Shown here piece by piece: positions 9,585 through 44,276 of a stretch of DNA of 64,000 nucleotides. Each line of letters opens with the position of its first letter. The first letter of the stretch is position 1. A program made the translations under genes and the position numbers. A model generated the notes under the pieces. That model worked only from the letters and a program-made list of their open reading frames with translations. It had not been told where the DNA came from and did not search any database. Source of the stretch: Limisphaerales bacterium (GTDB lineage: Bacteria; Verrucomicrobiota; Verrucomicrobiia; Limisphaerales; UBA11358). The stretch covers positions 6,750 through 70,749 of the forward strand of contig JBBCGE010000003.1 in the NCBI GenBank assembly GCA_037200545.1. Direction: 5' to 3'.

Positions 9585-12500
9585 TCAAGGCGAGCGCAGG
9601 CGATAAAAACGTCCGGGATAACCGGATGGATCGCTGAAGGTGGACGTGCCGCTGGCGGAAAGAGTATTGGTGGCGACGGGCAGCCACACGGGATTGATCA
9701 GATTGGTGCAGGCTTGCACCACAACGACCGTGCTGGCGGAACCGGTGAGGTTGAATCCAAAATGTCCGCCGATTACGGCACTGCCTGTGATGGCCAGGGG
9801 AGCCGGCGGTGAAATCATCATCGTCGGGGCGCCGCCGAACGTCGCACCCCAGCCAGTGGTGCCGGCCAAGTAATAGACTGTGGCCGGACTGCCGGGAAAA
9901 ATGCTTCCACCGCTCGACGGGGCGTTCTCTTGAAAATATACGCCCGTCAGGCTGCTGCAGCCGGCAAAGGTATTAAAGCCGACGGCGGTGACGCTGCCGG
10001 GAATGGTGATGTTCCCAAGACTGGAGCAAGCTGCAAAGGTGGAATCCGCGATGCTCGTGAGGCCGTTGGGAAGAGTCACGCTGGTCAAGCTGCCGCAGAG
10101 CGCAAACGCCGCCACACCGATGCTGGTGACACTGTTGGGAATGATCACGCTGGTGATCGTCGTGCAGTTGGCAAACGCCTGGTCGCCGATGGCGGTGACG
10201 GGCACGCCAAAGATCGTGGCGGGAATCACGACCGCACCACCGCTACCGTTGTAGCCGATGATGGTGATGCTGGTATCGTTGATCACCTGACAAAGCAAGT
10301 CGGGGTAGGCCACTGCCGTCGGAGCATAGCCATACGTTGAACCCCAGCCGGTGGTGCCGGCCAGATAATATACCGTGGCTGCCATGGCATTCCCGAAAAC
10401 GCTGCTATCAGCGGACGGCGCATTCCCCAGAAAACAGGCGGCGGTCAGGCTGGAGCAGCCTTGAAAGGCATAAGATCCGATGCTGGTAACGCCGGAGCCA
10501 AAGGTCACGTTCGTCAAACTGGTGCAGTAAGCAAACGCGTCGCCTCGGATAGTGGTGATGTTGGCTGGAATGATCAGGCGCGTCAGATGGTAGCAGTAGT
10601 AAAACGCGGAATCCCCGATGTTGGTGACGCCGCTGCCAAAGATAACGTTTACCAAATGATAACAATCGGTAAACGTGCCGTCCCCGATGGTTCTGACGCT
10701 ATTGGGAATGATCACATCCGTCAGGCTGATGCATAGTTTAAACGCAGAATTGCCAACATTGGTGACGCCGCTGCCGATGGTTGCGCTCTCCAGGCTGGTG
10801 CAGTTGTAAAACGCGCCATCCCCGATGCTGGTGACGCCATTTCCGATGATCACGTTCGTCAGGCTGCTGCAATTAAAAAAAGCATAATTCCCAAGATTGG
10901 TAACGCTGTCGGGAATGGTGATGCTCTTAAGATTAGAGCAGTCATGAAACGCACTCTCGATGATGGTGGTGACACTGCTGGGAATGGTCACATTGGTGAC
11001 ATTGGTGACTTCAAATGCAGAATTTCCGATGGTGTTGACCGGATAGCCAAACATTGTGCTAGGGATCACGACATTGCCGCCCGTACCGATATAGCCAGTG
11101 ATGGTAATCTTGGCATTGTTAACGACTGTGTAAGTAAAATTAGGGTCGGCCCAAGTGGCCGTGGAAACACCGCCAAACGTCGAGCCCCACCCCGTGATGC
11201 CCGACACATAATACACAGTTGCGGGAGTGCCCGAAAAAATGTCCGCGCCAATGGCCGGCTGATTCCCTGAAAAATTGACGGACGTCAGGACCGGGCAGGA
11301 AGCAAATGCATTGTCTCCGATAGTGGTGACGCCATTCCCAATGGTGACACTCATCAATTGGGAACAGCCGGCGAACGCATAATTGTCGATATTGGTGACG
11401 GTGTTGGGAATGATGATGCTTGTCAGGCTCGCACTGTAAAATGCGTAATCCCCGATGCTGATAACCGTGTTGGGAACGGTGTAACTGCCGGTCACACCGG
11501 CCGGAAATTCGACCAGCTTGGTTTGCGCCTTGTTGAGCAGAATCCCGCCCACGCTGCTGTAAGCCGGATTGGAAATATTCACCGCGATATTCGTCAGGCC
11601 GGTGCAATAAGCAAATGCCATATATCCGATGTTGGTGACGCCGGCGGGGATGACCATGCTTCTTAAACTGGAGCAACCCTGAAACCCGCCAGTCCCGATG
11701 CTGGTGACGCTACTAGGCAGGGTCACGTTCGTCAGACTGACGCAGTTGGCAAATGACCCATTGCCGACGGTGCTGAGGCCATTGGGCAGGATCACATTTG
11801 TCAGGCTGAAGCAATTGGCCAGCGCGTTGTCCGCGATCTGGATGACACTGTTGAGCAAGGTGTAACTGCCGGTCCGGCCAGCGGGAAAGAAGAGCAAGGT
11901 GGTTTGTGCCTTGTTGTGCAAAACACCGTTAACGCTGCTATAGGTCGCGTTGGCCGCACTCACCGTCACGTTGGTCAGGCCGGAGCATTCGCTAAACGAA
12001 CCGCGTTCCATGCTGGTGACGCCGCTGCCGATGGTCGCATTCTTCAGCCTCACACAGAATTGAAACGCATTGTCCTCGATGCTGAGGACGGTGTTGGGGA
12101 TGATGACATTCGTCAGGCCGGAACAATAACCAAACGTATAACTCCTGATGATGGTCAGACCGCTGCCAAAGGTCACATTCGTCAACCCAAGGCAGCTATA
12201 AAAGGCATAATCCCCGAGGCTGGCAAGGCTGTTCGGCAGGGTCAATGTTTTCAGCCCGGAGCAGTTATAGAACGCTTGATTCCCGAGGCTGACAACCGTG
12301 TTGCCGAGGGTCACGTTCGTCAAGCCATGGCAATTTTGAAACGCGCCGGACCCGATGCTGGTTATGCTGTCAGGAATGGTCATGCTTGTCAGGTTTGTGC
12401 AGAGGGTAAACACATTGTTCCCGATACTGGTGACGCTATTGGGAATATTGATATTCGCCAGATTGTAGCAATTGTAAAATGCGGTGTCTCCCAGGTTGGT

Positions 12501-14072
12501 GACGCTATTGCCGATGATCACATTAGCCAAACTCCTGCATTCATAAAATGTTTGAGCGCCAAGGCTGCGAACGCCGTTACCGATGCTCACCGTCTTGAGG
12601 TAGGGGCTGCTGTAAAACACACTTTGTCCCATGCTGGTGACACTGTCCGGGATGGTCACATTGGTCAGGACAAAACTAGCGGCAAACGCCAGGTTTTCTA
12701 TCCGGGTGACGTCTAGGCCAAACATCGTGCTGGGAACGACCAGGTCGTCACTGGAACCGTTATAGCCCGTGATGGTGATATTGGTGCCTCCGACGACTGA
12801 ATAATTAAAACCAAGGTAAGCCCAGACAGCGGTCGGGCGTCCCGCAAATTGTGAACTCCAACCCGTCCTAAAAGATACGTAATAGATGGTTGCCGGAGTA
12901 CTGGAAAAAGCACTTGCGCCAACAGATGGGGCGTTCCCTTCAAAATAGACTGCGGTCAAGCTGTTGCAGGAGGCAAACGCAGAATTCCCAATGCTGCTGA
13001 CACTACCGGGAATGATCACGCTTGCCAGCGCATCGCAGTTGTTGAACGCATTATTCCCGATGCTGGTAACGCTGTTGGGGATAATCACATTCGTCAAACT
13101 GGAGCAGGAACTGAACACGGAAACTCCTATGCTGGTGACGCCATCGGGAATGATGAAGCTTTTCAACTGGGCGCAGGAGCTAAAGGCGCTATTACCAATG
13201 CTGGTGACGCCAGCAGGAATGGTTAAACCCGCCAGACTCGCACAGTTGTTAAACGCTTGTGCCCCGATATTAGTGACGTTGTTAGGGATGATCACATTCG
13301 TCAGGCTGGAGCAGGAATTAAATACACCATTGCCAATGCTGGCGACGCCACTGGGAATGATCACGCTTTGCAACTGGGTGCAGGAGTTAAATGCACTGTT
13401 ACCGATGCTGGTGACGCCGGTGCCAATGCTCACGGTCTGCAGGGCGCTGCATGATGAAAAAGCACTGGTTCCGATGCTTGTAACGCCATTGGGAATGGTC
13501 ACGTTGGTGATGCTGCTTTTGGATACGAATGCACTGTTTCCGATGCCGGTGACGTTCAGACCAAACATGGTGTCAGGAATGACCACGGTATTGCTGGAAC
13601 CGGTATAGCCGGTGATGAAGATGCTAATTCCATTGGTGACCGTGTAGTTAAAGTTTGGGTCAGCCCAGACCGCCGTTGGACGACCGCTAAATGCCGGAGT
13701 CCAACCGGTGTTGCCCGCCAGGTAATATATGGTTGCCGGACTGTTTAAAAAAACGGTCGTCCCGATGGACGGTGCATTCCCGTAAAAATAGGCAGACTTC
13801 AAATTGGCACAACCAACAAACGCAGAATCCCCCAGGTTGGTGACACTGTTGGGAACAGTCACATTGGTAATGTCGCTGCCGCCGAAAGCAACAGCCCCGA
13901 TCCGGGTGACCGGATAGCCGTTGGTGCTGGCGGGAATGACCACCGTCAGGTTGGTGCCGGTGTAGAACGTGATGGTGATGGCACCACTGTTGGTTGTGAA
14001 ATTGAACTGCGCCTGTACAAGCTTGGGCAAAGCCAGACATGCCAGCGTTAAAAGCAGATGGTGAATTTTCAT
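9585..14072 (-). CDS. secreted BspA-type leucine-rich repeat (LRR_5) protein, about 1,495 aa
   Basis: The ATG at 14072 is preceded by GGAGGT. The signal peptide is MKIHHLLLTLACLALPKLVQA. Dozens of ~23-aa units follow the pattern (IPNSVTSIGNSAFSSCSSLTNV). Five super-modules are each closed by YF.GNAPS...PATIYY..G.TGW. The protein ends with a W...FYRL tail. Confidence 0.9.
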   Translation of the reverse strand: MKIHHLLLTLACLALPKLVQAQFNFTTNSGAITITFYTGTNLTVVIPASTNGYPVTRIGAVAFGGSDITNVTVPNSVTNLGDSAFVGCANLKSAYFYGNAPSIGTTVFLNSPATIYYLAGNTGWTPAFSGRPTAVWADPNFNYTVTNGISIFITGYTGSSNTVVIPDTMFGLNVTGIGNSAFVSKSSITNVTIPNGVTSIGTSAFSSCSALQTVSIGTGVTSIGNSAFNSCTQLQSVIIPSGVASIGNGVFNSCSSLTNVIIPNNVTNIGAQAFNNCASLAGLTIPAGVTSIGNSAFSSCAQLKSFIIPDGVTSIGVSVFSSCSSLTNVIIPNSVTSIGNNAFNNCDALASVIIPGSVSSIGNSAFASCNSLTAVYFEGNAPSVGASAFSSTPATIYYVSFRTGWSSQFAGRPTAVWAYLGFNYSVVGGTNITITGYNGSSDDLVVPSTMFGLDVTRIENLAFAASFVLTNVTIPDSVTSMGQSVFYSSPYLKTVSIGNGVRSLGAQTFYECRSLANVIIGNSVTNLGDTAFYNCYNLANINIPNSVTSIGNNVFTLCTNLTSMTIPDSITSIGSGAFQNCHGLTNVTLGNTVVSLGNQAFYNCSGLKTLTLPNSLASLGDYAFYSCLGLTNVTFGSGLTIIRSYTFGYCSGLTNVIIPNTVLSIEDNAFQFCVRLKNATIGSGVTSMERGSFSECSGLTNVTVSAANATYSSVNGVLHNKAQTTLLFFPAGRTGSYTLLNSVIQIADNALANCFSLTNVILPNGLSTVGNGSFANCVSLTNVTLPSSVTSIGTGGFQGCSSLRSMVIPAGVTNIGYMAFAYCTGLTNIAVNISNPAYSSVGGILLNKAQTKLVEFPAGVTGSYTVPNTVISIGDYAFYSASLTSIIIPNTVTNIDNYAFAGCSQLMSVTIGNGVTTIGDNAFASCPVLTSVNFSGNQPAIGADIFSGTPATVYYVSGITGWGSTFGGVSTATWADPNFTYTVVNNAKITITGYIGTGGNVVIPSTMFGYPVNTIGNSAFEVTNVTNVTIPSSVTTIIESAFHDCSNLKSITIPDSVTNLGNYAFFNCSSLTNVIIGNGVTSIGDGAFYNCTSLESATIGSGVTNVGNSAFKLCISLTDVIIPNSVRTIGDGTFTDCYHLVNVIFGSGVTNIGDSAFYYCYHLTRLIIPANITTIRGDAFAYCTSLTNVTFGSGVTSIGSYAFQGCSSLTAACFLGNAPSADSSVFGNAMAATVYYLAGTTGWGSTYGYAPTAVAYPDLLCQVINDTSITIIGYNGSGGAVVIPATIFGVPVTAIGDQAFANCTTITSVIIPNSVTSIGVAAFALCGSLTSVTLPNGLTSIADSTFAACSSLGNITIPGSVTAVGFNTFAGCSSLTGVYFQENAPSSGGSIFPGSPATVYYLAGTTGWGATFGGAPTMMISPPAPLAITGSAVIGGHFGFNLTGSASTVVVVQACTNLINPVWLPVATNTLSASGTSTFSDPSGYPGRFYRLRSP

Positions 14073-14118
14073 TACCTCCGGTTCATCATACATATGGTTT
14101 TAATCATGGGAAATTATT

Positions 14119-14209
14119 TGTTCCAAATTGTCGCCACACAAAGCGCCCAGACCGCGTCCCAATGCAGGTTTTGCCATGCGCGCAGGACAGGGAGTTGTCA
14201 ATTTGAAGC
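14119..14209. repeat. direct repeat copy B: displaced parB 5' remnant (encodes MAKPALGRGLGALCGDNLEQIISHD*)
   Basis: See copy A. The minus-strand ATG at 14174-14176 opens a 25-codon remnant that stops at 14100-14102, 27 nt upstream of the LRR gene start. Confidence 0.85.
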
Positions 14210-14264
14210 GGAAAAGTGACTTGGCAAAATCAACAGCCGGTGGTTCAATTATTAAAGACGCCAA

Positions 14265-15488
14265 ATGAAAATCCTGCTGTCAGCCCTGATAGTGTTCTGT
14301 GATCTGTTCACCACGGTGAATCCTGCGTTTGCTCAAACTTGGACGCAGACCAGCGCGCCCATTACCAATTTGCTTTGGCAATCGATTGTTTCATCTGCAG
14401 ATGGAAGTCAAATTACGGCAGTAGCGCAAACTTCTGCCCAACCCCTAACCGGTCCAATTTATAGCTCGTTTGACTCTGGATTAACCTGGACTTCCAACAC
14501 ACTTTCCCCGAAAGCCTGGATTGCGATTGCCTCATCGGCAGACGGCACAAAATTGGTATCATTGGTTCGTAACGGGTTAGGATATGCCTCAACAAATTCA
14601 GGATTTTTTTGGAATAATTCATTGCCCAATGCGAATTGGTATTCAGTCGCTTCGTCGGCGGATGGCACCAAATTGGTAGCAGTGGCAGGAACAGGAAGCA
14701 TTTACACCTCCACGAATTCGGGAAACAACTGGTTCCTTATCTCTGGCACGTCCGGCATGTTCTGGCGCTCGGTTGCTTCCTCAGCGGACGGCAAAAAACT
14801 GGTGGCGGTTAATCGCCGGTCGGGATCCCCTGGCGGTTCAATTTACACTTCTACTGATTCAGGAGATTCATGGATTTCGAATAATGCACCCAATTTAATT
14901 TGGGTTTCCGTGGCGTCTTCTGCTGACGGAAATATTCTGGCGGCGGCACCCGGTGGATTTAATCTAGGCAATGGTCCGATTTGTGTTTCGACAAATTCTG
15001 GTTCAACTTGGATGACCAACAGCTCCCCGATTCTGGCGTGGACGACCATCGCTGCTTCGGCAGATGGAAGAAAATTAATTGCAGCAGCGCTAAAGGCTGA
15101 CGGAAACTCGGTTTTTTCAAATTCGATTTTTACTTCTACTGATTTTGGCGCAACTTGGGTTTCCAATAATGTTCCGGCGCTGAATTGGTCTTCAGTTGCC
15201 GTTTCTGCGGATGGTAACAAATTGGTGGCAGCAACGATTTATGGCGGCATTTGGACTTCGCAAACTACGTCCTCACCGCAATTAAACATTGAGACTTCAT
15301 CCACCAACCTCATGTTCTCTTGGGTCGTTCCTTCAATGAATTTCGTATTGCAACAGAATGCAGACTTAATAATAACGAACTGGGTCACATTAACGAACGA
15401 ACCCGTGTTGAATCTCACCAATCTGAACAACGAGCTGGTTCTTTCTCCATCCAACAGCAGTGGTTTGTTCAGGTTGATTTCGCAATAG
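14265..15488 (+). CDS. secreted BNR/Asp-box beta-propeller protein
   Basis: The signal peptide ends AFAQT. Repeated W.S(I/V)ASSADG.KL(V/I)A blades and Asp-boxes are present (SFDSGLTW, STNSGNNW, STDSGDSW, STNSGSTW, STDFGATW). The protein ends with a W...FRL tail. Confidence 0.85.
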   Translation: MKILLSALIVFCDLFTTVNPAFAQTWTQTSAPITNLLWQSIVSSADGSQITAVAQTSAQPLTGPIYSSFDSGLTWTSNTLSPKAWIAIASSADGTKLVSLVRNGLGYASTNSGFFWNNSLPNANWYSVASSADGTKLVAVAGTGSIYTSTNSGNNWFLISGTSGMFWRSVASSADGKKLVAVNRRSGSPGGSIYTSTDSGDSWISNNAPNLIWVSVASSADGNILAAAPGGFNLGNGPICVSTNSGSTWMTNSSPILAWTTIAASADGRKLIAAALKADGNSVFSNSIFTSTDFGATWVSNNVPALNWSSVAVSADGNKLVAATIYGGIWTSQTTSSPQLNIETSSTNLMFSWVVPSMNFVLQQNADLIITNWVTLTNEPVLNLTNLNNELVLSPSNSSGLFRLISQ

Positions 15489-15593
15489 AACTTTTGCCTT
15501 TGGGGGCTTTAGCTTCAACCGCCAGCTATATTCTTTAATCGAAAATGCTGCTTGGAAAAAATATTGAAAAATGGTTTAACTGGCCATAATCAG

Positions 15594-16775
15594 ATGAAAA
15601 ACCTGCTGATCGATGCCATTCTTTTCTGTGCAATAATCACAGTTGCAAGTTTTGCTTATGCTCAAACTTGGAGCCAGTCAGGCGCTCCTTTGGGTTTAAT
15701 ACTTTCTGGAGCCATGTCTGCCGATGGATCCAAAATAATCGCCGTAGGATCAGGTAACCCAGTTGTTTCATTAGATTCGGGAAAGACTTGGGCAACAATC
15801 GTTGACACTAATCCAGCAATAAATTTTGAATTTCAACATTTTACCCAAATTGCTTCGTCCTCACTTGGGAAAAAATTAATGACTGTTCAAGGTTATGCAC
15901 CATATTCCAATTCAATCTATCTTTCAGAAGATTTTGGGCTAACGTGGACGCCACGCTCGCCGAAACAACTTTGGCGGTTCTGTGCAATTTCGGCTGATGG
16001 GAGCAAACTTTTCGCGGGTGTGAACGGCGGGTTGATTTATAAATCGACCGATTTTGGAACCAATTGGATTCCCACCGGTGCGCCTAGTGCTGGATGGTCG
16101 TGCATCACTCTTTCGGCTGACGGAACTAAGCTTGCAGCAGGCATAGGGCAAACTACAACAGGTAAAATTCACATATCAACCAATTCGGGAATCACATGGA
16201 CAGCGACGAGTGCCCCCAGTAATTTTTGGTATAGCATCGCTTCATCGGCTGACGGAAGTCATCTCGTGGCGACGAGCAGCAGCGGCACTTATGTTTCGAC
16301 GAATTCGGGAAGCAGTTGGATACAATTCAGCTTCCCGGGTTTATCGGCAGCAGTTTCAACCGATGGAAGCAAATTGATCATTGGCAACATAGTGAATAAT
16401 GGGAAGATTTATACTTCGACTAATTTTGGGATGAATTGGGCAACAAATGTTGTTCAAAATATTTCAAATGTGAGTTGGAGAAGTGTGGCCTCTTCCGCAG
16501 ATGGATCTTTATTGCTGGCTGGAACTGACGGTGGGCTTTGGATTTATCGAGCAATATCATCACCGCAATTAAATTTAAAAGCATCCCGCGCCAACCTTGC
16601 TTTTTCTTGGTTGATTCCTTCGACAAACTTCGTATTGCAGCAGAACGTAGATTTGGTTACGACAAATTGGGTGACGTTGACCAACGAACCCACGCTCAAT
16701 CTCACCAACCTGAACAACGAGCTGGTTCTTTCTCCATCCAATAACAGTGGCTTTTTCAGGTTGATTTCGCAATAG
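15594..16775 (+). CDS. secreted BNR/Asp-box beta-propeller protein (paralog of 14265..15488)
   Basis: I prefer the ATG at 15594 (MKNLLIDAILFCAIITVASFAYAQT signal) over the track's TTG at 15552. The blade architecture is the same, and the last ~75 codons are almost identical to the upstream paralog. Confidence 0.85.
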   Translation: MKNLLIDAILFCAIITVASFAYAQTWSQSGAPLGLILSGAMSADGSKIIAVGSGNPVVSLDSGKTWATIVDTNPAINFEFQHFTQIASSSLGKKLMTVQGYAPYSNSIYLSEDFGLTWTPRSPKQLWRFCAISADGSKLFAGVNGGLIYKSTDFGTNWIPTGAPSAGWSCITLSADGTKLAAGIGQTTTGKIHISTNSGITWTATSAPSNFWYSIASSADGSHLVATSSSGTYVSTNSGSSWIQFSFPGLSAAVSTDGSKLIIGNIVNNGKIYTSTNFGMNWATNVVQNISNVSWRSVASSADGSLLLAGTDGGLWIYRAISSPQLNLKASRANLAFSWLIPSTNFVLQQNVDLVTTNWVTLTNEPTLNLTNLNNELVLSPSNNSGFFRLISQ

Positions 16776-18171: not shown

Positions 18172-18386
18172 AGTTTTCACTTCCAACGCATGGGCACGCG
18201 CTGATCCGTTGCGAATTTTCAACACAATCCATCCTGCCGGTTCCATTAATTTGTCTGTCATCCGGATAATTTCAATTGTGAAGAAGTCACCATTGACAGA
18301 ACGTAGCGTCGTCGGTTACAAACGGCGCAAGGTTGTATCTGGGATTTTTTGATTCACAAGTTGTACGTCGGTGGCCGCTGAAACTT

Positions 18387-21300
18387 ATGAAAAAAATCGA
18401 GCCGGTGCATGTTCTCGGACGGATTTTCCTCTTCGCATTTGCCACTTCAAGTTTCCCACTCGAAACGGAAGTCGAGGCTGAAACCGAAACCGATCGCACC
18501 AATCTGGCCGTGATCGTCCGGCACGCTCCGAGCCTGAACGGCGGAACCATCCAAGGCTCGCTCCAGCAGCTTAACGGCGAGAATATGACGATCAACAGCG
18601 GCTTTACCATGACTGGCGATCTGCTTGTGCCCGGCGTGCCGACAGTTGTATCGAATGGAAGGCCCGTTTATTCAGGAACCATTTCCGGAACCGGTGCCGC
18701 GTCGCCCACGGGATACAGGGTTACTTTTAATGGCAATACTTCCCTGCGTTATTTGCGGACGCGGACCACCCCGGTTTCATTGCCCACTGTTTCAGTTCCA
18801 CCTTCGCCCGCCGGCACCCGCACAGTGAACATCAACAGTGCCGGGCAATCTTATGGCGATGCCAGTACATTGCGCAATCTGACTCTTAACGGGAACGTCG
18901 GCATGATCGCGGTGCCGCCTGGCACTTATGGAAGTTTTACGGCAAATGGCGGTTCAGGATTTGTGCTGGGGGTCGTGGGCGGACTTCAGGCAATGAATTA
19001 CAATTTACAAAATCTGAATTTGAACGGCGGTTCCACTTTAAAAATAACTGGTCCTGTGGTGTTGACCCTCGCCAATGGATTCAATGGCAATGGAGCGATG
19101 GGCGCGTCCAATAATCCGGCGTGGTTGCAGCTTCAACTGGCCAATGGAGGATTCACGCTCAATGGAGGCTGCGCGTTCTACGGGCAGGTGTTGGCGCCGA
19201 ATGGAACGGTGATCATAAATGGCAACTCGACGTTGATTGGCACTTTAATCACTGACCAGTTTATATTAAATGGCGGCGGCATGGTGCAGCGGGGCGGGGC
19301 GGTCACACAAACGAATCAACCGCCGGTGGCCGCTCCGCAAAATATCACGCTGCCGGAAAATAGTTTGACCAACATCACCCTGACGGGGTCTGATCAACAA
19401 GGGAGAACGCAGGTGTTTACACTTCTGACACCGCCGGCACACGGAACGTTGAGCGGCGCACCGCCGAATGTAACCTACAAACCGGCGACAAATTATTTCG
19501 GCAGCGACACGTTCACTTTCAAAGTAAATAATGGCATCTTGGATTCGCCACCGGCGACCATTTCACTGAATGTCACAAGAGTCTATTATCCGCCTACGGC
19601 CTTCTCGCAGACTGTCACAAATTATCAAAATACGGCCCTGCCCGTGACATTGACCGGTTCTGATCCGCAGGGATATTCCTTGAATTACTTTGTGATGACA
19701 CAGCCCGGTCATGGAACATTGAGCGGGCCGACGCCCAATCTAATTTACCGGCCCGCCACAAATTATTATGGCAACGATTCCTTTACCTTTCGGGTCAACA
19801 ATGGAATAACCAATTCACCTGCCACCGTCATCAACATCACCAACCAGCCGGTGGACTACCCGCCAATTGTCGTGGCCGGGCCGGATCAATTGATCATTTT
19901 GCCAATCAGCAGTGTCACGCTTAATGGCTCAGTTTATTTTTCTCCTTATCCCAGAACAACAAACACAATTGTTTGGAGCAAGGTGAGTGGTCCTGGTGCC
20001 GTCATTTTCAGCAATCCTTCAAACAGCCTGACATCGGCGACTTTCAGCCAGTCCGGCGTGTACAAGCTTCGCCTGTTTGCCACGGATTCATTTTTAAGCA
20101 ACAGCAACGATCTCACAGTTATTGTGGATGCACCGCCAGTAGTCAACGCAGGACAAGCCTTGACGAATAATTTTCCGGGCACGATCACCTTGACGGGATT
20201 CGCCAGTGACGACGGCTTGCTCACCAATGCACCATTGACCGCGATTTGGAATAAAATCAGCGGGCCGGGCACGGTCACGTTTGGAAACGCAGCAGCAACA
20301 AATAGCGCGGCTATTTTCAGCACTAACGGAATTTATATGCTGCGCCTCACAGTGGACGACGGCATTGCCACCAATCACTCTGATATAACTGTCATCGAAA
20401 ACTTGCCGCCACTCGTCAACGCCGGTTCCACTCAAACAGTGAATTTTGGCGCAACAGTCACCTTGGCCGGGATGATCGCTGACGACGAATTGCCGGATAG
20501 CATTCTTACCAGCGTCTGGAATAAAATTAGCGGGCCGGGCAATGCTGCGTTTGCCAATGCGACTGCAACCAACACCACGGTTATCTTCGATCAATCCGGC
20601 ATCTACGTTTTAAGTCTCACGGCCGATGATGGCTTCTCCACGAACAGCAGCAATGTGACTGTCATCATCAATCAGCCTCCAACCGTTTCTGTCATGGCAG
20701 ATGAATTAATGGTGCAATTGCCATCCACTGCCACTTTGAGCGGTATTGTTTCAGATGACGGTATTCCAAATGGGATATTGAATAATACTTGGAGTCAAGT
20801 CAGCGGACCCGTCACGGCCCTTTTCAGTAATGTCAGCGGGACGAACACGACCGCCAGCTTTAGTCAGCCTGGCATTTATATCTTAAGACTAACGGCAGAC
20901 GATACGATGGCAACTAGCAGCGGCGAAATCTCCGTGAATGTATTGCCAGTGTTAAACGCCAACCACGCGCCACAAGCCTTTGGGCAATCGTTGAACGTAA
21001 ATGAAGGCGAACCCTTGGCGATCACGCTCAATGGAATGGATCCCGACGGCGATGCTTTGACTTTCAACGTGATAATTCCACCCACTCACGGAACGTTGAG
21101 CGGGTCGGCATCAGACCTGATATATCTTCCGGAGACCGGCTATACCGGTGATGATGCATTTGTGTTTGTGGCCAATGATGGGAAAGCTGACTCAGGGCCG
21201 GCAATTGTTTACATTTTGATTAATCCGTTAAACTATGCTCCCATAATTTCTGTTCCAGCAGATCAAACGGTCACTGAAAATCCGATTCTCCAATTTGACA

Positions 21301-24300
21301 TTTATAAAGCCATCTCAGTTTTCGATGCGGACGCAGGCAGTGACTTGCTTCAACTTTCGCTTGCGGTTACGCATGGCACACTGATTTTAGGGACGACCAG
21401 CGGTTTGCTTTGGGTCACGGGAAGCAATGGTTCAAGCAACATTGTGGTGAAAGGTTCGTTGGACGATCTTAACAACTCGCTGGCTGGGCTTACCTACATC
21501 GGGGCTACAGGCTTCGTTGGTTCTGATAGCCTTGAAATAAGTGTTGATGATCTTGGCCATGCCGGGAGCGTTGGAAACCAGGTTGATTCAAAGTCCATAA
21601 CCATCATCATAAACCCAGCCGTTCACTTTTCAAAGTCGGCCACCGCAGGCACTAATTTTTGGGTCGCCCGGCTGCCGGGCCTAGGAACTACCCGGATGCG
21701 CTGGATCATGCTGCTGGCTGAACAGGATACAAGCGTAACCGTGATCGTGCCTGACCGATATACTCAATTCCACGACGATGGAACTTTTTCGACCGCGCCG
21801 GGAGGAACTTCTACAATAGAACTACAGGCAGGGGTGCCCTTCATGGGGGCATTGGAGCAGTTGAACAGGTTTTCGCCAGTCCTCACTTCTGGCACGATTA
21901 CAAATTCGGCTTTTAAAATATCTTCCACCGAACTCGTCTCCGTATTTGTCACCGACTTTTCGTTCAATGATTCCGACGCGTTTCGTGCTTTGCCGACAGA
22001 AGTGCTGGGCACCAATTACGTCATTACGGCATATGGCAACTTTCAATTGTTCCCCGGAAATGTGTTTGGCAGTCAGTTCTCGGTTACGGCTGCGGAGAAC
22101 GAAACCGAGGTTGTGATTGTGCCCGCTGTTTCCACAGGCGATCATCCCGCAGGCCAGCCTTTTACCGTGACGTTGCAACAAGGGCAAACCTTCGGCCTTC
22201 GTCACACCGAGACGGCCACGGGCGACCTCACAGGATCTACGTTGACGGCCAGCAAGCCCGTTGCCGTGCTCGCAGGCAACGCCTTTGCGACCATACCGCC
22301 GGGCGAAGGTTCAGCTTCCGATATTTCCGAACAACTGATGCCGGTGGAGCATTGGGATTCCGAGTATGTGGTCACACACCTCGCTGGTCGCGCCAGTTAT
22401 GCCATGCGTGTAGTGGCCGCTTATGATGGAACAGCCGTTCAGCTTTCCGGTCTTGGCGAAACCAATTTGAATCGCGGTCAATTTTGTGAATTGCTTCTGA
22501 CGAACGATCTTCATGTGATTGTCAGCCAGCCGGTGGCCGTCTGCCAATATGCACTTGGTGATCCATCTGACAGTTTGCCGGGAACTCCCACCATGATCTG
22601 TGTGCCGGGCGTGCATCAAGGTTTGACCGACTCACAATGGATGACCTCGGAAGCAGTTCAGACCGTCAATTTTGGCGGCAGATTCTCTGCTGTTCCTCTT
22701 TATACGAACTTTGTCAATCTCGTGGTGCCCGGCGGCGCATTTGCCAGCCTGAGGATCAATGGCGACCCTTTGCCGTCCGATGCTTCTTGGAACATCGTCG
22801 GTAACGGCGAGTTCATTGATGTTTGTTTACCGGTCACCAATGGTGTTTACCACATTCATTGTTCGGAACCGGTTGTGACGATCAACTATGGTGTGTTCGA
22901 GAATGTGGCCGGTTATGGACTGGGTTCTTATGGACTGGCCGGACCATTTTCGCTTCCTGTGTTCCCATTGAATGTTCAAGTCGCAGTGGCATCACCTACC
23001 AATGGAAGCGTGGTCATCGCTGGTGTAGAAACATCCGTCGTAGCTAACATCTCCGATCCGCAAAATCTGGTGACCAATGTGGAATTTCGTGTCGACGGCA
23101 ATAAAATTTCTGAAGGCGCAACCACTAACTTTACGTGGACTCCCGTGCAGGCCGGTAATTATGCGCTTCAATTCGTTGCGTCCGCCTTGACTGGCGATAG
23201 CGTCACTTCCTCACCGGTGAATGTGACTGTCAGTTATGATTTCACATCCCAGGGCGTGTTGATTGTCAGCCCGTATGATGGCGAATCCGCCTATGTCAAC
23301 GGCCTGACGCTCATTGCCCTTGATTTTGATGATCCGCTCGGCCTGTTTGATTACGCGGAGTTCTTTGCCAATAATGTAAGTCTAGGGGAGACAACTAATA
23401 CGGTCTTTAACTGGGTTCCATCGAGCACTAATGACTATGTGCTGTCAGCCATCATTTATGATTTTCTCGGCAATGCTTACCCTGCAACCAACACCGTCAT
23501 GGTCCATGCGATCCTGCCGCCGCGTCCGCAGCTGGCTATCACCTCTCCCACCGATGGCAGCCGGGTGCGGGTCGGCGTTGAATCAGTTATCATCGCCAGC
23601 CTGTTTGACCCGGGAAATCTGACGACCAACGTGCAATTCTTTGCGGATAGTGTAAAAGTTTCTGATAACTCCACCTACTACTCGTGGACGCCGGCCCAAA
23701 TTGGCGGTCATGCATTGCAGGCCATTGCTTTGACTTCCGATGGGGAAAACGTCTCTTCTGCAATCGTCAACGTCACCGTCGCCGAGATGTTTCCGCCGGT
23801 GGTCAATCTGCTGTCACCGACCAACAACCAATTGTTCGCCTCCGGCATTGCTCCATTGTTGAGTGCGCAGGCAGTTGATTCAGATGGCTTGATCACCAAT
23901 CTGACACTGACGCTGGACAACACAACGGTGGCGGAAACGAATCTCGCCTTTTTGTCAGTGACCGCCACGAACGCCAGGCCAGGTTGGCATCAAGCAGTTG
24001 CGGAAGCCGCCGACAATGACGGTCTGACCGCCTCGTCGGAGATCGTTTCTTTCTTCGTTGAGCGGAGCGTGAACACCGCGTTACCGGTACCCGGCCAGTT
24101 TGCAGCCCGTGCACTTTCCGCCACGGAAATTGAATTGTCATGGTCACCAGTCGGCACCAACGGACTCCCCCAAAACATACTTGTCCAACGCTGGGATTTT
24201 ACCGGTTTGCAATGGATTGAAATCACTCAAGTTCCAGTTGTCAGTACGAACTGCCTCGATTCGGCCCTCGATCCCGAAACGTATTATCGCTATCGCATTG

Positions 24301-27300
24301 CATGCATTGATGGCAATGGCAACCGGTCCGCCTTCACGGCGGAAACCAACGCCACGACACGCACGGTGGTCCCGAACTACGCGGTCATAGATTTGTCCAC
24401 CGCCGTCGCCAGTTCACTCACCAACCTCGTTCCGGGCGGCAGCCTTCTCACCAACGCCGGCCTCACGCAATTTGACAGTCGTCGAACTGTGCCACTTGGA
24501 ACGCTCCACGCGGAATCTATTCTCGGCAGCAAAGCAGCCGTTCTTCGCCAGGCAGTTGCCCGCTTCACAGAACAATGGCCGCAGATTCAACTGGATTACG
24601 ATCCGATATTGCTGTCGCCTCATTCCATCATGCCGCGCGTCGGCTATCTCACCGGTCCGGGCGGAGCGGGCATGACCGTGTCCGCTGCCACGGCACAAAT
24701 GTTTGATCCAGCGGATACAAGCCAGCCGGTTAAAGCATTTCTTAAGGAGCACCAAGATTTGTTTGGATTCGGCCCGGAAGAAATCACCAACGCCGTTGTG
24801 AACCGGGATTATATTTCGGCATTAAACGGAGCGCGGACAACCGTGTGGCAACAACAAGTCGGCGGTATTCCAGTATTTAACGCGCTTTTTATCGGCCACA
24901 TGACCAGTGTCGGTGAACTGGCCGCAGTGGCCTGTGATTTCATCCCAGCCCCGGCGCAGTCAGCCAATTCCAATGTTCTGACAGCGGTGCAGAACAGTTA
25001 CAGTTTGCCACTGACGGGCGCGCAGGCATTACAGGCTGCCGTGAATAACGTCGGCGACGTTTTTGCGCCGGCTGACATCATTAGTCAGAGTGTGATTCAG
25101 GGAATAGCACGCAGTCAAAGTTATGTCGCCGCAAAAGGAATCAAGGGTGCTGCCCATGCAGGCTTGACGTGGTTTCCCGCCAGCCGCAACGAATTAAAAC
25201 TCGCCTGGCAGGTCACCTTCACCAGCCAGTGGCGGAATGAAATGTATCTCGCATTGGTTTCCGCCGAAGACGGCGAAATTCTTTATCGCCGGAATCTCAC
25301 CGCTGACAGTTCAGATGCCAGCTATCGTGTTTATACTGATTCCAGTCCCGCACCGATGTCGCCGGGCTGGTCCATGCCGGGCAACGTCCAGCCACCCTTG
25401 GTTGATCGTTCCTTGGTGACAATCACTGCATTGGACACCAATGCCTCGCCTATTGGCTGGATCAATGACGACGACAACCAAACACTCGGCAACAACGTAG
25501 ATGCGCGTCTGGATCGTAACGACGATAATTTGCCTGATCTGCCACGTCCCGTCGGCAATCCATCGCGCGTTTTTGACTTCGGATTGGATCTTGGATTAAA
25601 TCCAGTCACCTATGGCGATGCGTCGGTCGTGCAATTATTTTATTGGGATAATTGGATGCACGACGTGTTATATGGGTTGGGTTTCACAGAAGCCGCCGGT
25701 AATTTTCAGTCGGATAATTTTGGCCGTGGCGGGCAGGGCGGGGACTCCTTGCAAGCTGATGCCCAAGACGGCTTGAGCCTTACCGACAGGCGTTACCGTA
25801 ATAATGGCAACATGTCCACACCGCCCGATGGTCACACGCCGTTGATGCAGATATATGTGTTCGATGGCGCGAACCCCGCCCGCGACGGCAGTCTTGATGC
25901 GGAAATAATCCTTCACGAATATACGCATGGCTTGAGCGCACGTTTCATCGGCGGTGGTGCGGGCATTGACGCGCAGCAAACCATGGGCATGAGTGAAGGC
26001 TGGTCGGATTTTTTTGCACTGGCATTGTTAAACGATCCATCAGCGGATCCTGACGCCGCCTATCCAGTCGGCAGTTACGTTGCCTACCATGGCTTTGGCA
26101 CCATGTTCGATGAGAATTATTATTATGGCATCCGGCATTATCCTTATTGCACGGACACGAACAAAAATCCCCTGACGTTCGCAGATATTGATCCCGGCCA
26201 AGCCAGCGCTCATGCCGGAGTGCCATGCAGTCCGTTGACCGGCCCCCTCAATCCCGCGTTGGCCGACGAACCGCATGTGGAAGGTGAGATATGGTGCATA
26301 ATGCTCTGGGAGATGCGGGCCGCGTTGATCCACAAACTGGGAGCGGAAGCAGGCAACCGGCTGGCGCTGCAACTGGTGACAGATGGCATGCGTCTCTCGC
26401 CGCCTAATCCAAATTTTGTGCAGGCGCGCAATGCGATTTTACTGGCGGACCGGATATTGTCCAACGATGCAGAAGCGCCGGAGATTTGGGCAGCCTTCTC
26501 GAAACGCGGCTTGGGATACGATGCCAAGGCACCATACAGTTACACTACGGCCGGCGTGCAGGAATCGTTCTCGTCCGCGCCTGCGCTGGTTGTGGAGCAG
26601 ATTGTCATTCAAAGCGACGACGGAAGTGCGAATATTGGCACGAATACGGATTTTAGCCTGTTCATGGCTGTTTATAACCAAGGTACAGCCACGGCCCAGC
26701 AAGTCGCCGCCCAAATTACGACCACAACACCGGGCGTTCAAATTCTGCAATCGCAATCTGCATACGGTGACATTCCACAAAATCAGTCGCGCGGCAATTC
26801 GGTTTTGCTACAAGTCCATACATTGCCCGGATTTGTGGCGGGCACACTGATCGATTTGAATTTTACAATTAATTCTGTTCCGCACTCGGTCACAAGCAGA
26901 CATCGTCTTTACACAATTAATTTAGACCCGGTTCTGCCAAATAATGACAATTCTTCTGCGGAGCCAACTTCTGACTCCGCTGTCCCGAAGGATTTGACGC
27001 CATACGATCTCGGCAATCTGGAACCGTTGTGGATGGCAGATGATGCAAGCTGTTTACTGAAGGCGGGACTAGGCAAATATATATTGTGGCGGCCCGGCGT
27101 AGAATCAATACCGATGATTAACCCGAATTTTCTGGCGCATCGATTGACGCGGCATGGGATTGTCGTTGGTGAATTGGTAGTAAGCGTGGATCACGACATC
27201 TTCGGCGATATGTTCACCAACACAGTCGGTGCCAAGTGGATTCCCGGCCAAACGGTGCCAACGCCGCTAACCGCCGGTTTTTATGCATATCCCAAAGATT

Positions 27301-30251: not shown

Positions 30252-30254
30252 CTT

Positions 30255-31364
30255 ATGAATAAACGAATAGTTAATTCGGTTTTTTGTGCCGTCATCGCAT
30301 TATTGTTGGGATTTTGGTTCTTTCGAGGGGTCGCTCCGCGCGAAAATGCTCCCGTTCCGCTGGCCGCGACCAGTAATGATATGGTCAAGGCAATCAATAT
30401 AACCAACCTCGCGAATCTGGCTGCAACACTATCCGCTGTCACCTCAAAGCTGGTCTATTACAAGGGCGGATTGAAAAGCGTTTATCTTTTTAAATCCACC
30501 AACTACCCGCCGCAAACCGCCGGAGAAAAGGCCATGTGGGAATGGTGGGATGCCATGGATAAGGCTGATCCCCAGTTCCAGTGGAAGATGCCGATTGAGT
30601 TTTACGGAAAAGTGGTGGATCAGTTTGGCGAACCCGTGCCGGAGGCGATGGCAGAGTTGGGTTTGGACAACGGTCATCGGCCTCGTTCCAGACCCAAAAA
30701 TAAAAGTGGTTGCCGACGCGAACGGAAAGTTTGAATTGAAGAATGTACAAGGTAAAATTTTAGGCGTATTTCTTTCAAAAAGTGGATATATTTTTGGGCA
30801 TAATTCGCAAGGAGATTTCGAATATGCTTCATTTTATCAAGATAACTTCCATGTTCCCGACCCGAATCATCCAGTCCTCTTTCACCTGCAAAAACTGACA
30901 GGGGCGGAACCGATGTATAAATATCTACCGTACGGTGAGATTCCACTGAGGGGATCACCGCTAGTTTTGGATGTGAAAAAAGGAAAGGTGTCAAGTACAG
31001 GCGACCTGGCTTTTCTGTAGTTTTGGGAAAAACCAACCGGTATGGTTCGGATTTCACAGTCATCATGCAGGGGCTGAACGGATCAGGTTTTGTTTTAAGC
31101 GATGATGAGTTTCTTTTCAAAGCGCCCGAATCGGGTTATCAAAATTCTTTTACTGTAATTCACAATGATCAAGTTCCTAATTACAGGCCACAGCAAATGC
31201 TACGATTTTATGTGAAGACTGGCACGGGCAAATATGCCGCTGCTGAAGTTACCATCAGCGTGTGGGGTGATTTGTCCCGGGCTGACTTTAGATCGATTCT
31301 CTATTACAATCCCAGTGGTTCGCGGAATTTGGAGTTCGATCAGGACAAATGGATAAATCGCTGA
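30255..31364 (+). CDS. membrane-anchored protein with carboxypeptidase-regulatory-like beta-sandwich segment (two frame breaks)
   Basis: It starts 3 nt after the giant gene's stop. The N-terminal anchor is VFCAVIALLLGFWFF. The fragments 30255..30734, 30550..31020 and 31023..31364 join as ..PDPKIKVVADANGKFELKNVQGKILGVFLSKSGY.. and ..STGDLAF|SVVLGKTNRYGSDF.. (T-run 31011-31014). Confidence 0.6.
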
Positions 31365-31419
31365 ATTAAATTCAAATTTGGTTGCTAACCAAGAACACCA
31401 GTTCCCGATAACACATTGA

Positions 31420-32927: not shown

Positions 32928-32937
32928 AAATGTTAAA

Positions 32938-34659: not shown

Positions 34660-34680
34660 CCGGTGACGGAAGCATGTGCT

Positions 34681-40330: not shown

Positions 40331-43300
40331 CTATGGTCCGACACCGTAGAAGGTGTTCGTCGCACTCGGAGTCAGTTGATAGAACGGCGCGGTAGCCCCC
40401 GGCACCGGGGTCCACGGACCGGTGACGCTGCCCGATTGTTTGAGCGTGCCACTGTTAACCGGCCATGCGATGCCAACCTTGCCGCCTCCCACCGGGGTGA
40501 TCACAACATTGACCGGACCAAACGTGTCAAACGACTTGCCATAGTTCTGGCCGGCGAAGAAAACGCTCTCCGCTTCGATGTCCGTCAATTCCCGGTTCCA
40601 CATCCCGATATCATCGAGGATGAATCCGCCGGATTCCGCATACACACCGTCAGAACCCTGACCGATGTTGAATGGACCACCAGAATCAATGCTGCCGATG
40701 CCGCTGATGGGCGAGGCGCTCACAAACACGCCGTCAAGATACGTCTTGCCGGAACCGGTGCGATTGAAGGTCTCAACCACGTTATGCCAGTTGCCATCAT
40801 TGATCGAATTGTCGGGGCCATACAGACCTGCGCCCGTACCAGCGGAATTGTCAAGCGACCAGGACCAGCCGCCGCGTTGATAAGACGGGGCGATCGTTAT
40901 GCCAAACCCACCGTAGGAAGTGGCCGAACTTGAAAAGAAGGGCAGGTCGCCTTGCGCATAACCCACTGGCAGCTTCACCCAATAAGAGAAGGAAAAGTTG
41001 CCGCCCGATCCAAACTGGAAGTCAGCCGGATTTCCAAACGCCAGGTAGTTGTATATGCTGTTGGTCGTATCCGTGGAAACACTCACCGCTTGATTGCCGA
41101 TTTTGCCAGTGACAAGGGAAGGTGATCCGACCGGCGTGCCGTTGTTACCGTGGCCGGACGTATCGTTGTAGTTGCCTTCAAATGTCAGGTGCAATATGAG
41201 GCCATTTGTCAGGTTGGCATAGGCCGGCGGCGGATAGACGCTGATCACTGCATTAGTGCTCAGAGCGAACCCATATGCGTTTGTGGCCGCAACGGAATAA
41301 GTATCATTGTAGGCCGCATATGAAACATTGCTTACCACCAAGGTGGAATTAGTCTGGCCAACCAGATTAACGCCGTTTTTCTTCCACTGGAGTGTGATGG
41401 TGGGAGCGCCTACTGAGGAAGCAGAAAAGACGACGGTCTGACCCGCAAACGCATTCTGCGAAAACGGTTGCGTGACAAGAGTGGGCGGTGAAGTGCCGAA
41501 TGCAGCCGTGTAATGTGCCAGAATCTGGGCGGCCGTCAGGCTCTTGCTGCCGTAGAATGCCACTTCATCCACTGATCCGACAAAATAACGCGTCAAGACG
41601 CTGGCCACGCCGCTGCCAAGGCCGCCGATGATGAACGGCTTGCTGGCATTTAGCGACGTACCACCGTTACCCCAGATGAAACCATCGGTCAGTCCGTTGA
41701 CATACATCTGATAAGGGTAAGTAGGGTTGCCGGTGTTACCATACAAAAGAACCAGATGCGCCCATTGGCCTCCTTGAATGGTTGGATTGTAGTTCGTATT
41801 GTTTGGTGCGGCACCGCCGCCGGGAGCCGATCCAAATGTGCCCCCGCCATTCTCGCCAATCCAGTAAGAACCGGTTCCTAGGCCAAAGCCAGCCGCGCCG
41901 CCCACTGTATCCCAAGAGGAGGCCATTGTTGTATTATTAACCACAGTGGTTTGCTTGGCCCATAATTCAAAGGTAAATGTTGAACTGCTCAAAGTGGAGA
42001 AATAAGGAATGTATCCATAGCTTCCATCGCCATTAAATGTTGCCGCCGTGCCGGCGATGCCGCCAATAATGGCTCCGGGAGTCAAAACAGTGAGACCGCC
42101 ATTGTTGGTATAAACACCGTTATGATGATTCATGGCATCGCTTAAGAGCGCTCCATTGGTGGCCACCGTATCATCCAAACGCCACCATGCGTCCGGTGCA
42201 TTGGAATCCACCAATTGGGCATAAGAGCCTGCCACGAGGAATGGCACCGTGATCACGGCCGGGCCCAAGTTGGTTGCACCCAAGGAATTGGTCACACTGA
42301 CAGTGTAAGATCCGGAGTTATTAGTGGTGACGCTGGCAATGACATAAGAAGAACTGGTCGCACCGGGAATGGATACCCCGTTTGTTTTCCACTGATACTT
42401 AAGGCCGCCACCCGTGGCGACAACTTTCAAGTTCAAAGTCCCGCCAGGATAGATGGTGGCTCCAACCGGTCCGGAGATAATCACCGGAGCAGTAGCGAGC
42501 TGGCCGGTAACGACCGCCACGCCGCTCGTGGCCGAGCCGAAATTATTGGTGACGATCACAAAATAGTTTCCCGAATCACCAGCGATGCTGAAATTTGGCT
42601 TGGAATAAACACCGGCATTGGCCCCGGGAATGGCAACACTGTTCGAGAACCATTGATAGCTCAGGTCTGGTGTGCCGCCCGCATTCACGGTAAGTGTCAA
42701 CGTATCGCCGACTACGATAGGCTGATCCGGGCTGGCGGGACCGGAGAAAACAATCGGCGCAAGACCGCCCACGGCCGAAGCGTATTGACTGTAAAGCTCG
42801 CCTGAACTCAGGGAACGGTTCCAAATCGCCACTTCGTCAATGGCGCCATTGAAACTGAAATCAGGATCACCCGCGTCAGTACCGACCAGGGTGGGGCCAG
42901 CAAATGCCTGGTTGACGTGAACCACAAAGTTGGTGGCGCTCTGGAAACTGGCACCGTTGTTGGTGGTGGCGATGTAAATATCCGCCTCATTAGGCTGAAC
43001 TACCAATGCCACATAAGCCCAATCCGAATCTGGAAGCGTTGCCAGACCATAGAGCGTTGTCGGGCTCCAATTATATGTATTCGCCGTGTTGTTCCAATAA
43101 TAACCAATTCCAAGACCGCCATGTGCACCGTCAATGATCAGGCCGGCACCGGTGGTGCCAGAATCACATACTACTAGTCCTGCACCGGGATTCTGCAGGT
43201 TGGTTGCGTTGACCCATCCGGAAATGGTGACGGTATTGGTGTTAAAGTTGAACGGAGGCAACCGTACTGCACCGCCTTGCGCGACGAAGGCGGCTGATTT

Positions 43301-44276
43301 GTTCACTGCGGAGAAACCCGGATAAGTGGGAGATTGCGGACCAGGCGAACCGGCGATGGCGGGCGCGAGGTAAATTCCGTCGCCTGCACTGCCCAACGTG
43401 CCCAAGTTCGGTGCTGGCGGAGTAGGCGGCGCTTGATAACGGTCATAAAGTACCGGAGAACTTGCCAACACGGTTGAAGCATAAGTGGCCGGTGCTGTGG
43501 TGGCTGCCGCATAGTGGGCAGCTATGGTGCCAGCGGAAAGAGCGGTGGGATACAAGGCAGGCTCGGCTACGTTGCCGGGCCAGGGGAAATTAAGCGAACT
43601 GCGGATGCCAACTGTGAACGGCGCATCCGTAGTCGGCACATAAGTGGATTCCAGATGCATCATTGGTGCTTTGGCAAAACACACCATTGGTATAAATCTT
43701 GAGGCTTGTGCCGTCAAAAGTTACGGCAAGATATGTCCAGCCGGGAGTGACCGGTGCCGCCACGGTGAACAAAGGGTTGGCCGCATTTTGATTGAACGTA
43801 CGGAATACCCAGGCCGAGCCTAAAGCAAAGGTGCTTCCGTCGTCTTGAGCAAAATACCACCCGGAACGGGGGGAATTAAGCTGGGCGGAGGAAGACATGT
43901 AGGCAAACTTGGGAATTGTTGCCGGATTGACCCAGATTTCATAGGTGAACGTAGCTGTATTAAGCCCGGCTGTAACCGGGGTATTGATGTATTGCGACGT
44001 GCCATCCAGACCAATCGAGACACTGCCCGAAAACGGCCCCGGCGCATTGAGAGTGGGCAAAGCAACAAAGGTTCCATTGGCGGCGGCACCGAGCGAGCCG
44101 GAGTTGGTCGCCCCGCCATTGGGCTGCGGTGACAAGGTTCCATCCAACCGATAAAAACCGGACGGATTCTGCGACAGCACAGTGGACTGATAGTCTGCGC
44201 GTGCTGTCAATGTGGCGGACAGGGCCAGCAGCAAAGTGCTGCCGAGCCGGACGACGTTTTTATGGATTGGTTTCAT
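40331..44276 (-). CDS. secreted LamG (concanavalin A-like lectin) / Ig-like multidomain protein, about 1,314 aa, one frame break
   Basis: The signal peptide is MKPIHKNVVRLGSTLLLALSATLTARA. Several Laminin_G_3-like units end with IDEVAIW / VDEVAFY / LDDIGMW motifs, and Ig-like repeats are present (YQWFSN.., YQWKTNG.., LQWKKNG..). The fragments 43590..44276 and 40331..43717 join as ..GTSLKIYTNGV|LAKAPMMHLESTYVP.. at the run 43676-43679. Confidence 0.8.

Follow-up and report, generated by a model that had tools for sequence, protein, structure and literature searches.

A predicted beta-sandwich domain at the C-terminus of unrelated exported proteins of Verrucomicrobiota shows hallmarks of a sorting domain

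We analysed a 64,000-nt stretch of contig JBBCGE010000003.1 from a Limisphaerales bacterium (hereafter the window, to whose positions all the coordinates given for it refer), and in particular the C-terminal tails of three of its exoproteins, one with leucine-rich repeats (LRR) and two with BNR propellers (BNR-1 and BNR-2). Each of the LRR and BNR tails is a copy of the same uncatalogued domain, which is extracellular, is 65-75 residues long and, by analogy, appears to show the hallmarks by which other C-terminal sorting domains were recognised; its function is putative. The LRR protein (9585..14093, minus strand; 1502 aa) is a BspA-type exoprotein and consists, according to its translation and to Pfam (LRR_5, E 1e-273), of a signal peptide, four LRR_5 modules and the tail domain. 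Its probable Sec signal peptide (14010..14072, minus strand), read from the sequence, is MKIHHLLLTLACLALPKLVQA followed by QF, and the junction, between AQA and QFTF, matches the pattern in homologs. The tail domain of this protein, which we call the LRR type (9588..9794, minus strand), reads AITGSAVIGGHFGFNLTG...WLPV...FSDPSGYPGRFYRLRSP before the stop codon, and matches the hidden Markov model (HMM) of the tails with E 2e-22, the match ending at the last residue.

BNR-1 (14265..15488, plus strand) comprises, from its translation, Pfam matches and AlphaFold model, a signal peptide (14265-14333), a seven-bladed BNR/Sortilin-type propeller, whose model matches Ycf48 and GH74 propellers in Foldseek, and a tail domain of BNR type (15276..15485, plus strand), PQLNIETSSTNLMFSWVVPSMNFVLQQNADL..NW...LFRLISQ before the stop codon (HMM E 2.5e-17). 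Its paralog BNR-2 (15552..16775, plus strand) has its likely start ATG at 15594, a signal peptide at 15594-15662 and a BNR-type tail domain at 16563..16772 (plus strand), which ends with FFRLISQ before the stop codon (HMM E 2.8e-17). Judging from the sequences, the N-termini of the three proteins are clear signal peptides. A sequence-only reading of this DNA had described a similar tail on four exoproteins with different bodies, these three and a LamG protein considered below, and all four C-termini were found where it had placed them, with the sequences that it had quoted. However, BNR-1 and BNR-2 are 46% identical across their full length; because they are paralogs over the whole length, they were considered as a single independent case, hence three independent cases in the window and not four.

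In the LRR, BNR-1 and BNR-2 proteins the tail follows the pattern (L/F)x(L/F)xW … (F/Y)x(L/V)(Q/E)xSxxL … W … F(Y/F)R(L/V)-xx-(P/Q)-stop. Precisely, one architecture fits the alignment of all the tails: a first strand, the (L/F)x(L/F)xW and (F/Y)x(L/V)(Q/E)xSxxL segments, an invariant Trp, Gxxx(F/V)x(D/V), RF(Y/F)R(L/V)xx(P/Q) and the stop codon. AlphaFold, run on the LRR tail with 22 aligned tails, gave a model with a predicted local distance difference test score (pLDDT) of 86.8 and six beta strands, the last one being FYRLR. The model of full-length BNR-1 (92 homologs; pLDDT 91.2, predicted template modelling score 0.89) showed six strands in the same order as in the LRR tail, C-terminal to the seven-bladed propeller, at residues 341-344, 349-354, 360-365, 381-383, 388-393 and 401-406. 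On these models, the tail is predicted to be a complete, autonomous six-stranded beta-sandwich domain with a conserved central Trp and F-(Y/F)-R-(L/V) as its last strand, so that the segment of about 40-50 aa described in the sequence-only reading gave way to a whole domain, which is not a short linear signal. No match at E<=1e-3 was found in the PDB with Foldseek; the nearest folds, all weak, were immunoglobulin (Ig)/fibronectin type III (FN3)-like sandwiches, including the BIg domains of SiiE and FN3 (E 0.01-0.3, template modelling score 0.5-0.6).

A profile of 22 tails found, among 1.84 billion representatives, 3,780 clusters (50% identity) at E<=1e-10 and 9,203 at E<=1e-3, the latter an upper bound because the profile, 94 positions long, also took in part of the LRR cap. 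The homolog search with bare tails returned short fragments only, and full-length BNR-1 had 5,494 relatives. In a genome scan there were 172 confirmed matches, the best 80 of which came almost all from metagenome-assembled genomes (MAGs) of Verrucomicrobiota (Verrucomicrobiae, Limisphaerales, Pedosphaera, 'subdivision 3'), two from Kiritimatiellia and a few from MAGs with other labels. The domain is abundant in Verrucomicrobiota of the Limisphaerales/Pedosphaera type. Verrucomicrobia-type LRR genes with the tail were also seen in MAGs labelled Bifidobacteriaceae, Myxococcales, Pseudomonadales, Sulfotelmatobacter, Binatia or Baltobacteraceae (loci L004, L049, L056, L070, L073, L077, L006, L025, L028, L029, L042 and L053), and these labels are likely due to mis-binning or mislabelling. 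The best 80 of the 172 matches, taken as loci of 20 kb each, made up together with the window the 1.27 Mb considered in what follows; the loci were fetched with a narrow LRR-type alignment, and the sample is therefore biased towards LRR proteins.

The relationship between the LRR and BNR tails is transitive, through intermediate tails. Direct comparisons speak for a chance or compositional resemblance among unrelated, low-complexity C-termini rich in Ser, Thr and Asn: LRR and BNR tails had no significant similarity in pairwise BLASTP, and the narrow profiles of the two subfamilies, aligned with hhalign, gave a probability of 2.3%, which is not significant. An HMM iteration that was seeded with LRR-type tails only did not arrive at the BNR tails in any round. 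By its fifth round, the iteration that started from BNR-type tails alone had arrived at the LRR protein (E 6e-14), having recruited generic tails such as '..LTWSATTGQSYQLQYTANLGSTGWINL..ATDVIGANAQRFYRVVLAP' and '..LTLTWSATTGQSYQLQYTANLGSTGWINLGGT..ATDVIGANAQRFYRVVLAP', both followed by the stop codon; the LRR tail hence matches a profile built without it, and the match ends at the C-terminus. BNR tails scored E about 1e-17 against a mixed seed HMM, which included BNR tails. In addition, the motif [FYL][FY][RKQ][LVFI] was found at most 7 residues from the stop in 111 open reading frames (ORFs) of the related loci versus 5.7 expected, about 80 of the 111 being the loci fetched by tail sequence. 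The many intermediates, the identical number and order of predicted strands in the two subfamilies, the thousands of homologs and this excess of the terminal motif make a chance resemblance extremely improbable; we considered it effectively refuted for the LRR and BNR tails and possible for the LamG tail only.

The LamG/Ig multidomain protein (40331..43717, minus strand; Laminin_G_3/Ig from Pfam) bears a divergent and weakly supported copy of the tail (40334..40492, minus strand), …KVGIAWPVNSGTLKQSGSVTGPWTPV…TFYGVGP before the stop codon. Two HMMs from which this tail had been left out scored it at 14.9 and 12.3 bits, for E about 1e-6 to 1e-5 when counted as one pre-specified test, and the HMM scan of the whole window did not report it. 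The sequence-only reading had regarded it as a looser version of the others; this stands as a weak match, but its terminal motif is TFYGVGP and not the PFYQL previously aligned. The long ORF has no signal peptide of its own and is overlapped at its 5′ end by another one (43590-44276, minus strand), which supplies a signal peptide (44196-44276) and a further Laminin_G_3 domain. The two ORFs are probably, from their arrangement, one gene split by a frameshift, either as a pseudogene or through a sequencing error.

The position of the domain was strongly biased. In the 1.27 Mb, 110/112 copies ended at most 4 residues from the stop codon, and about 40 of the locus copies were not the sequences used to fetch the loci. 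A broader HMM found 119/121 copies to be terminal, a generic HMM seeded from BNR tails only found 119 terminal and 2 non-terminal copies, and the sub-threshold matches (E 0.001-1) were mostly terminal and of the same pattern. Outside this sample, the last copy lay at most 5 residues from the C-terminus in 142 of the 150 best representatives; the tail was present in 116 of the 120 best BNR-1 homologs, chosen by whole-protein similarity, and in all these 116 it was single-copy and terminal. The ending itself was uniform: 223/241 terminal copies stop exactly three residues past F(Y/F)R(L/V). Among 30 non-redundant tails the last residue was Pro in 19 and Gln in 6, 25/30 versus a background of 13% (binomial p about 1e-17, uncorrected for relatedness), and among the BNR homologs it was Pro in 62/116 and Gln in 39/116.

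The bodies that precede the tail were diverse. In the 400 residues upstream of it, LRR_5 was found in 81/121 cases, a share that reflects the way the loci were fetched; the other bodies identified with Pfam were Ig_3/I-set, RCC1, Sortilin/BNR, tachylectin, YDG/MBG, phosphoesterase, malectin, Big_5/7/9, Kelch, TIG, cadherin with a GH88-like region and DUF5122 propellers, and several bodies had no Pfam match. Overall, the last-domain slot is used by no fewer than 12 unrelated Pfam body types (by more when the Pfam-less bodies are included), while there are two or three non-terminal architectures. Because so many unrelated body types share the C-terminal slot, common descent of one family cannot account for the terminal bias. 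Signal-peptide-like N-termini were found in 94/110 complete ORFs by a crude rule, and of the failures several show one by eye and others are fragments. Judged from their N-termini and domains, nearly all the carriers would thus be proteins exported by Sec, with bodies that are unrelated and mostly of binding type (LRR, propellers, lectins, Ig).

The tail is at least as conserved as the bodies, and in the BNR family it is more conserved than the propeller. In that family, chosen by whole-protein similarity, mean pairwise identity was 56% in the tail versus 48% in the body, and mean column entropy was 1.37 bits versus 1.90 bits in the propeller body. Between BNR-1 and BNR-2 the tail was 79% identical and the body 45%. 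Synonymous differences at identical codons of this pair amounted to 21/57 (37%) in the tail and 73/137 in the body, and with 37% of the identical tail codons differing synonymously, recent gene conversion was ruled out as the sole cause of the tail similarity. LRR-type tails were 62% identical versus 44% in the adjacent LRR region, in a sample picked by tail score and hence biased.

The domain libraries (Pfam 2025 and NCBIfam 2026) had no model over the tails at E<=1 when the whole window proteins were searched. On 22 tails at E<=10, Pfam gave just four scattered single-member matches (E>0.1) and no match to Ig, FN3, Big, CBM, PPC or dockerin models. A profile search of PDB sequences gave no match better than E 0.1. 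The names of the carriers at NCBI reflect their bodies only (for example 'leucine-rich repeat domain-containing protein' and 'cadherin-like domain-containing protein'), and we found no published description of the tail domain in the literature. The tail therefore appears to be an undescribed domain family.

Clustering of all the ORFs of the 20-kb loci showed no recurrent partner, receptor, processing or secretion gene; it yielded alternative-frame ORFs and one orthologous synteny block only, composed of aspS, the LRR gene and an alpha/beta hydrolase gene, with extracytoplasmic function (ECF) sigma factor and kinase genes nearby. Genes for an ECF sigma factor and a Ser/Thr-kinase-like membrane protein lay near LRR genes with the tail in six loci (L015, L021, L030, L041, L047 and L049), which may represent a regulatory neighbourhood or orthologous synteny only. 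Tail-bearing genes often occurred in small paralog clusters, with three or four in the window and in 7/80 loci. In the same loci a regular expression found classical PEP-CTERM tails in 8 proteins. One glycine-rich body carries the domain described here in L014 (9086-10222, plus strand) and PEP-CTERM in L025 (10553-11485, minus strand); the two homologs are 59% identical over 46 residues (E 1.6e-7), which points, from the sequences, to a C-terminal module swap on one body type. The glycine-rich secreted protein of L014 is interrupted by an in-frame stop.

Elsewhere in the window, 18333-28415 (plus strand) encodes a 3360-aa exoprotein with an M36 fungalysin peptidase domain, an IgGFc_binding domain and PKD, cadherin and Big repeats; the FYRL tail is absent from it. 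The next ORFs (28445-35507) had no Pfam matches, and there is a YD/RHS-like sequence in 31909-32445. Next to the LamG gene, 44416-45393 (minus strand) encodes a type II secretion or pseudopilin-like protein, with a methylation motif of prepilin type at its N-terminus; genes with this motif are typical of genomes of the Planctomycetes-Verrucomicrobia-Chlamydiae (PVC) group.

Among known systems, the closest working analogue of the tail would be the type A C-terminal domain (CTD; TIGR04183 / Pfam Por_Secre_tail) from Bacteroidota's type IX secretion system (T9SS), with a resemblance by analogy only and no membership. Hosts of the T9SS encode PorU, PorV, Sov and other components, and PorU cleaves the CTD. 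The CTD is an Ig-like sandwich of seven strands with its signal in the last two strands (PxGxYVV, KxxxK), and the T9SS was reported only in Bacteroidetes (PMC5445135). In Tannerella, a T9SS CTD is found on BspA, the archetypal protein with an LRR_5 body (PMC8869499). The two domains have in common the size class, the place at the extreme C-terminus of Sec-exported unrelated cargo, the most conserved motifs in the last strands and the occurrence on BspA-type LRR proteins (PMC5445135, PMC8869499); on the predicted fold of the tail, both may be Ig-like beta-sandwiches of 70-100 residues. They differ in that the tail model has six strands instead of seven, in that the tail is not exclusively C-terminal and single-copy, and in the host phylum, Verrucomicrobiota versus Bacteroidota. 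NCBIfam and Pfam searches of the whole proteins at E<=1, and a Pfam search of 22 tails at E<=10, gave no match to TIGR04183 / PF18962; the tails, which end with F(Y/F)R(L/V)xx(P/Q), show neither PxGxYVV nor KxxxK.

PEP-CTERM is likewise a C-terminal tag on secreted proteins of Verrucomicrobia, found in the same loci and interchangeable with the tail on the glycine-rich body; however, it consists of a short motif, a transmembrane helix and a basic cluster, whereas the tail would be a soluble all-beta domain without hydrophobic helix. The tail thus fills the slot that recognised sorting domains hold on similar bodies (the T9SS CTD on BspA, PEP-CTERM on the glycine-rich body). An exosortase-type (PEP-CTERM) signal was ruled out for the tails, which have no PEP motif, transmembrane helix or Arg/Lys cluster; so were an LPXTG/sortase signal (the LPXTG motif, the hydrophobic segment and the basic tail are all absent) and a beta-signal of the beta-barrel assembly machinery (there is no terminal aromatic residue). 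The dockerin is a module of about 70 residues, with a Ca-binding, helical, duplicated segment and a cohesin partner; many extracellular proteins, unrelated to each other, carry it, mostly C-terminally and occasionally elsewhere or duplicated. The tail resembles it in size, in its mostly C-terminal place on unrelated extracellular proteins and in its sometimes being located elsewhere or duplicated, but it is predicted to be all-beta, with no Pfam dockerin match, and the dockerin is helical with a known partner; dockerin-like docking can serve, as an analogy, as a working model. Bacterial Ig-like and FN3-like domains (BIg of SiiE, FN3) share with the tail the small beta-sandwich and the tandem occurrence, and they are its best, though weak, structural neighbours; the tail, by contrast, matches no Pfam Ig, FN3 or Big model, is extremely biased towards the last-domain position and has a conserved W and FYR(L/V) signature of its own.

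The strict position of the domain suggests cell-surface targeting of adhesin-like proteins. We infer, tentatively, a position-dependent role common to all the cargo, most likely docking or anchoring to a shared envelope partner, by which adhesin-like proteins would be retained on the cell. Precisely, the cargo would leave by Sec export and the tail domain would fold; the folded tail would then dock the cargo to a common partner in the cell envelope (an outer-membrane or surface protein, or a glycan), and the docking would either keep adhesin-like cargo on the cell or pass it to an outer-membrane step. In such a mechanism the tail would not be a short linear signal, cleavage would not be required, and the domain could work also when internal, in tandem or N-terminal. 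The sorting or anchoring signal proposed by the sequence-only reading is partly supported, and four of its supports held: the extreme C-terminal bias (about 98% in the loci, 116/116 in the BNR family), the unrelated cargo (LRR_5, BNR propeller, Ig, RCC1, tachylectin, malectin, phosphoesterase, Kelch, TIG, cadherin/Big and others), the signal peptides of nearly all carriers and the lack of a named family in Pfam, NCBIfam and PDB sequences. Against it stand the folded nature of the domain, its non-terminal copies and the absence of a nearby processing or secretion gene.

Several observations weigh against a role tied to position. The same reading had named internal occurrence, as in a common Ig/FN3-like domain, among the findings that would refute it, and this came true in part: although the tail is nearly always terminal, internal, tandem and N-terminal copies account for a few percent. 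Two or more copies were present in 32 of the 150 top representatives, a list ranked by summed score and hence favouring multi-copy proteins: P0037 is organised as [LRR+tail]x3 and has neither stop codons nor signal peptides between its modules, P0039 has two adjacent copies and P0128 five in tandem. Internal copies were also found in loci L044 and L070. In L036 (1-435, minus strand; E 1.4e-13) the order is signal peptide, domain and FGE-sulfatase (SUMF1-like), hence an N-terminal placement, and the same order was found with a weaker match in L079 (4973-6358, plus strand). Since such non-terminal copies exist, the domain can fold and persist elsewhere than at the C-terminus. At +3, only 14/43 internal copies have Pro or Gln, still over the background, and the uniform ending with its Pro/Gln signal may partly mark a natural domain boundary. 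Furthermore, no partner gene recurred in the loci, and the tail subtype tracks the body type (LRR-type on LRR, BNR-type on BNR bodies), with subtypes so far apart that direct profile-profile comparison does not detect them, which is awkward for a single shared receptor.

In the metagenome LRR proteins P0037, P0041, P0035 and P0105, units of a mature LRR module plus tail are repeated, and the internal tails are followed within a few residues by 'QFTYT.NNG.ITITGY', the usual start of the mature protein. From this arrangement, they look like in-frame fusions of tandem paralogs with loss of the stop codon and signal peptide.

Many of these observations would be expected of a generic Ig/FN3-like structural or ligand-binding module (a spacer, a stabiliser or a carbohydrate-binding domain) with no sorting role, terminal through the origin of the family and its expansion. 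This is a serious rival, and a possible one: besides the tandem arrays, the triple LRR proteins, the N-terminal copies, the subtypes that follow the bodies and the missing partner gene, it accounts for autonomous folding and for the weak resemblance to BIg and FN3 folds. It agrees less well with the occurrence of about 98% of copies at the end of at least 12 unrelated body types. Ig-like domains that act as spacers typically occur all along a protein; moreover, no Pfam Ig, FN3 or CBM model matched even at E<=10, and the BNR-family tail is more conserved than its propeller. A different possibility is an export signal in the style of the T9SS CTD, in which an outer-membrane translocon of Verrucomicrobiota would read the last strand and the free C-terminus, and then cleave the tail or swap it for an anchor. 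The size and fold class, the conserved motifs in the last strands as in the T9SS CTD (PMC5445135), the uniform ends and the shared slot on BspA-type LRR and glycine-rich bodies are consistent with it, but the tails match neither the CTD models nor their motifs, the T9SS was reported only from Bacteroidetes (PMC5445135), and no candidate machinery was seen near the loci. Because internal, tandem and N-terminal copies exist, we considered a cleaved export signal less likely than docking, and quite improbable in itself.

Docking to a shared envelope partner remains the reading that we prefer. A broader conjecture, which we regard as unlikely, is that the W…FYR(L/V) domain would tag the cargo of an undescribed export or attachment system in the outer membrane that only Verrucomicrobiota possess, and which would be to the PVC group what the T9SS with its CTD is to Bacteroidota; if this were true, there would be dozens to hundreds of substrates per genome, and these bacteria would have a surface proteome defined by the domain. 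Verrucomicrobiota of this type, mostly uncultured, are abundant in soil, in peat and in fresh water, and have many large adhesin- and lectin-like proteins to display or release. With a profile of the domain, up to several thousand 'hypothetical' C-termini could be annotated and much of the likely surface or secreted proteome flagged, and the profile would be a handle for phylogenetic profiling towards a receptor or secretion machinery. If there is no such machinery, the tail would still be a new domain family, whose preference for the last position is unusually strict and calls for an explanation; if the machinery exists, it would represent a new protein-sorting route in a major bacterial phylum.

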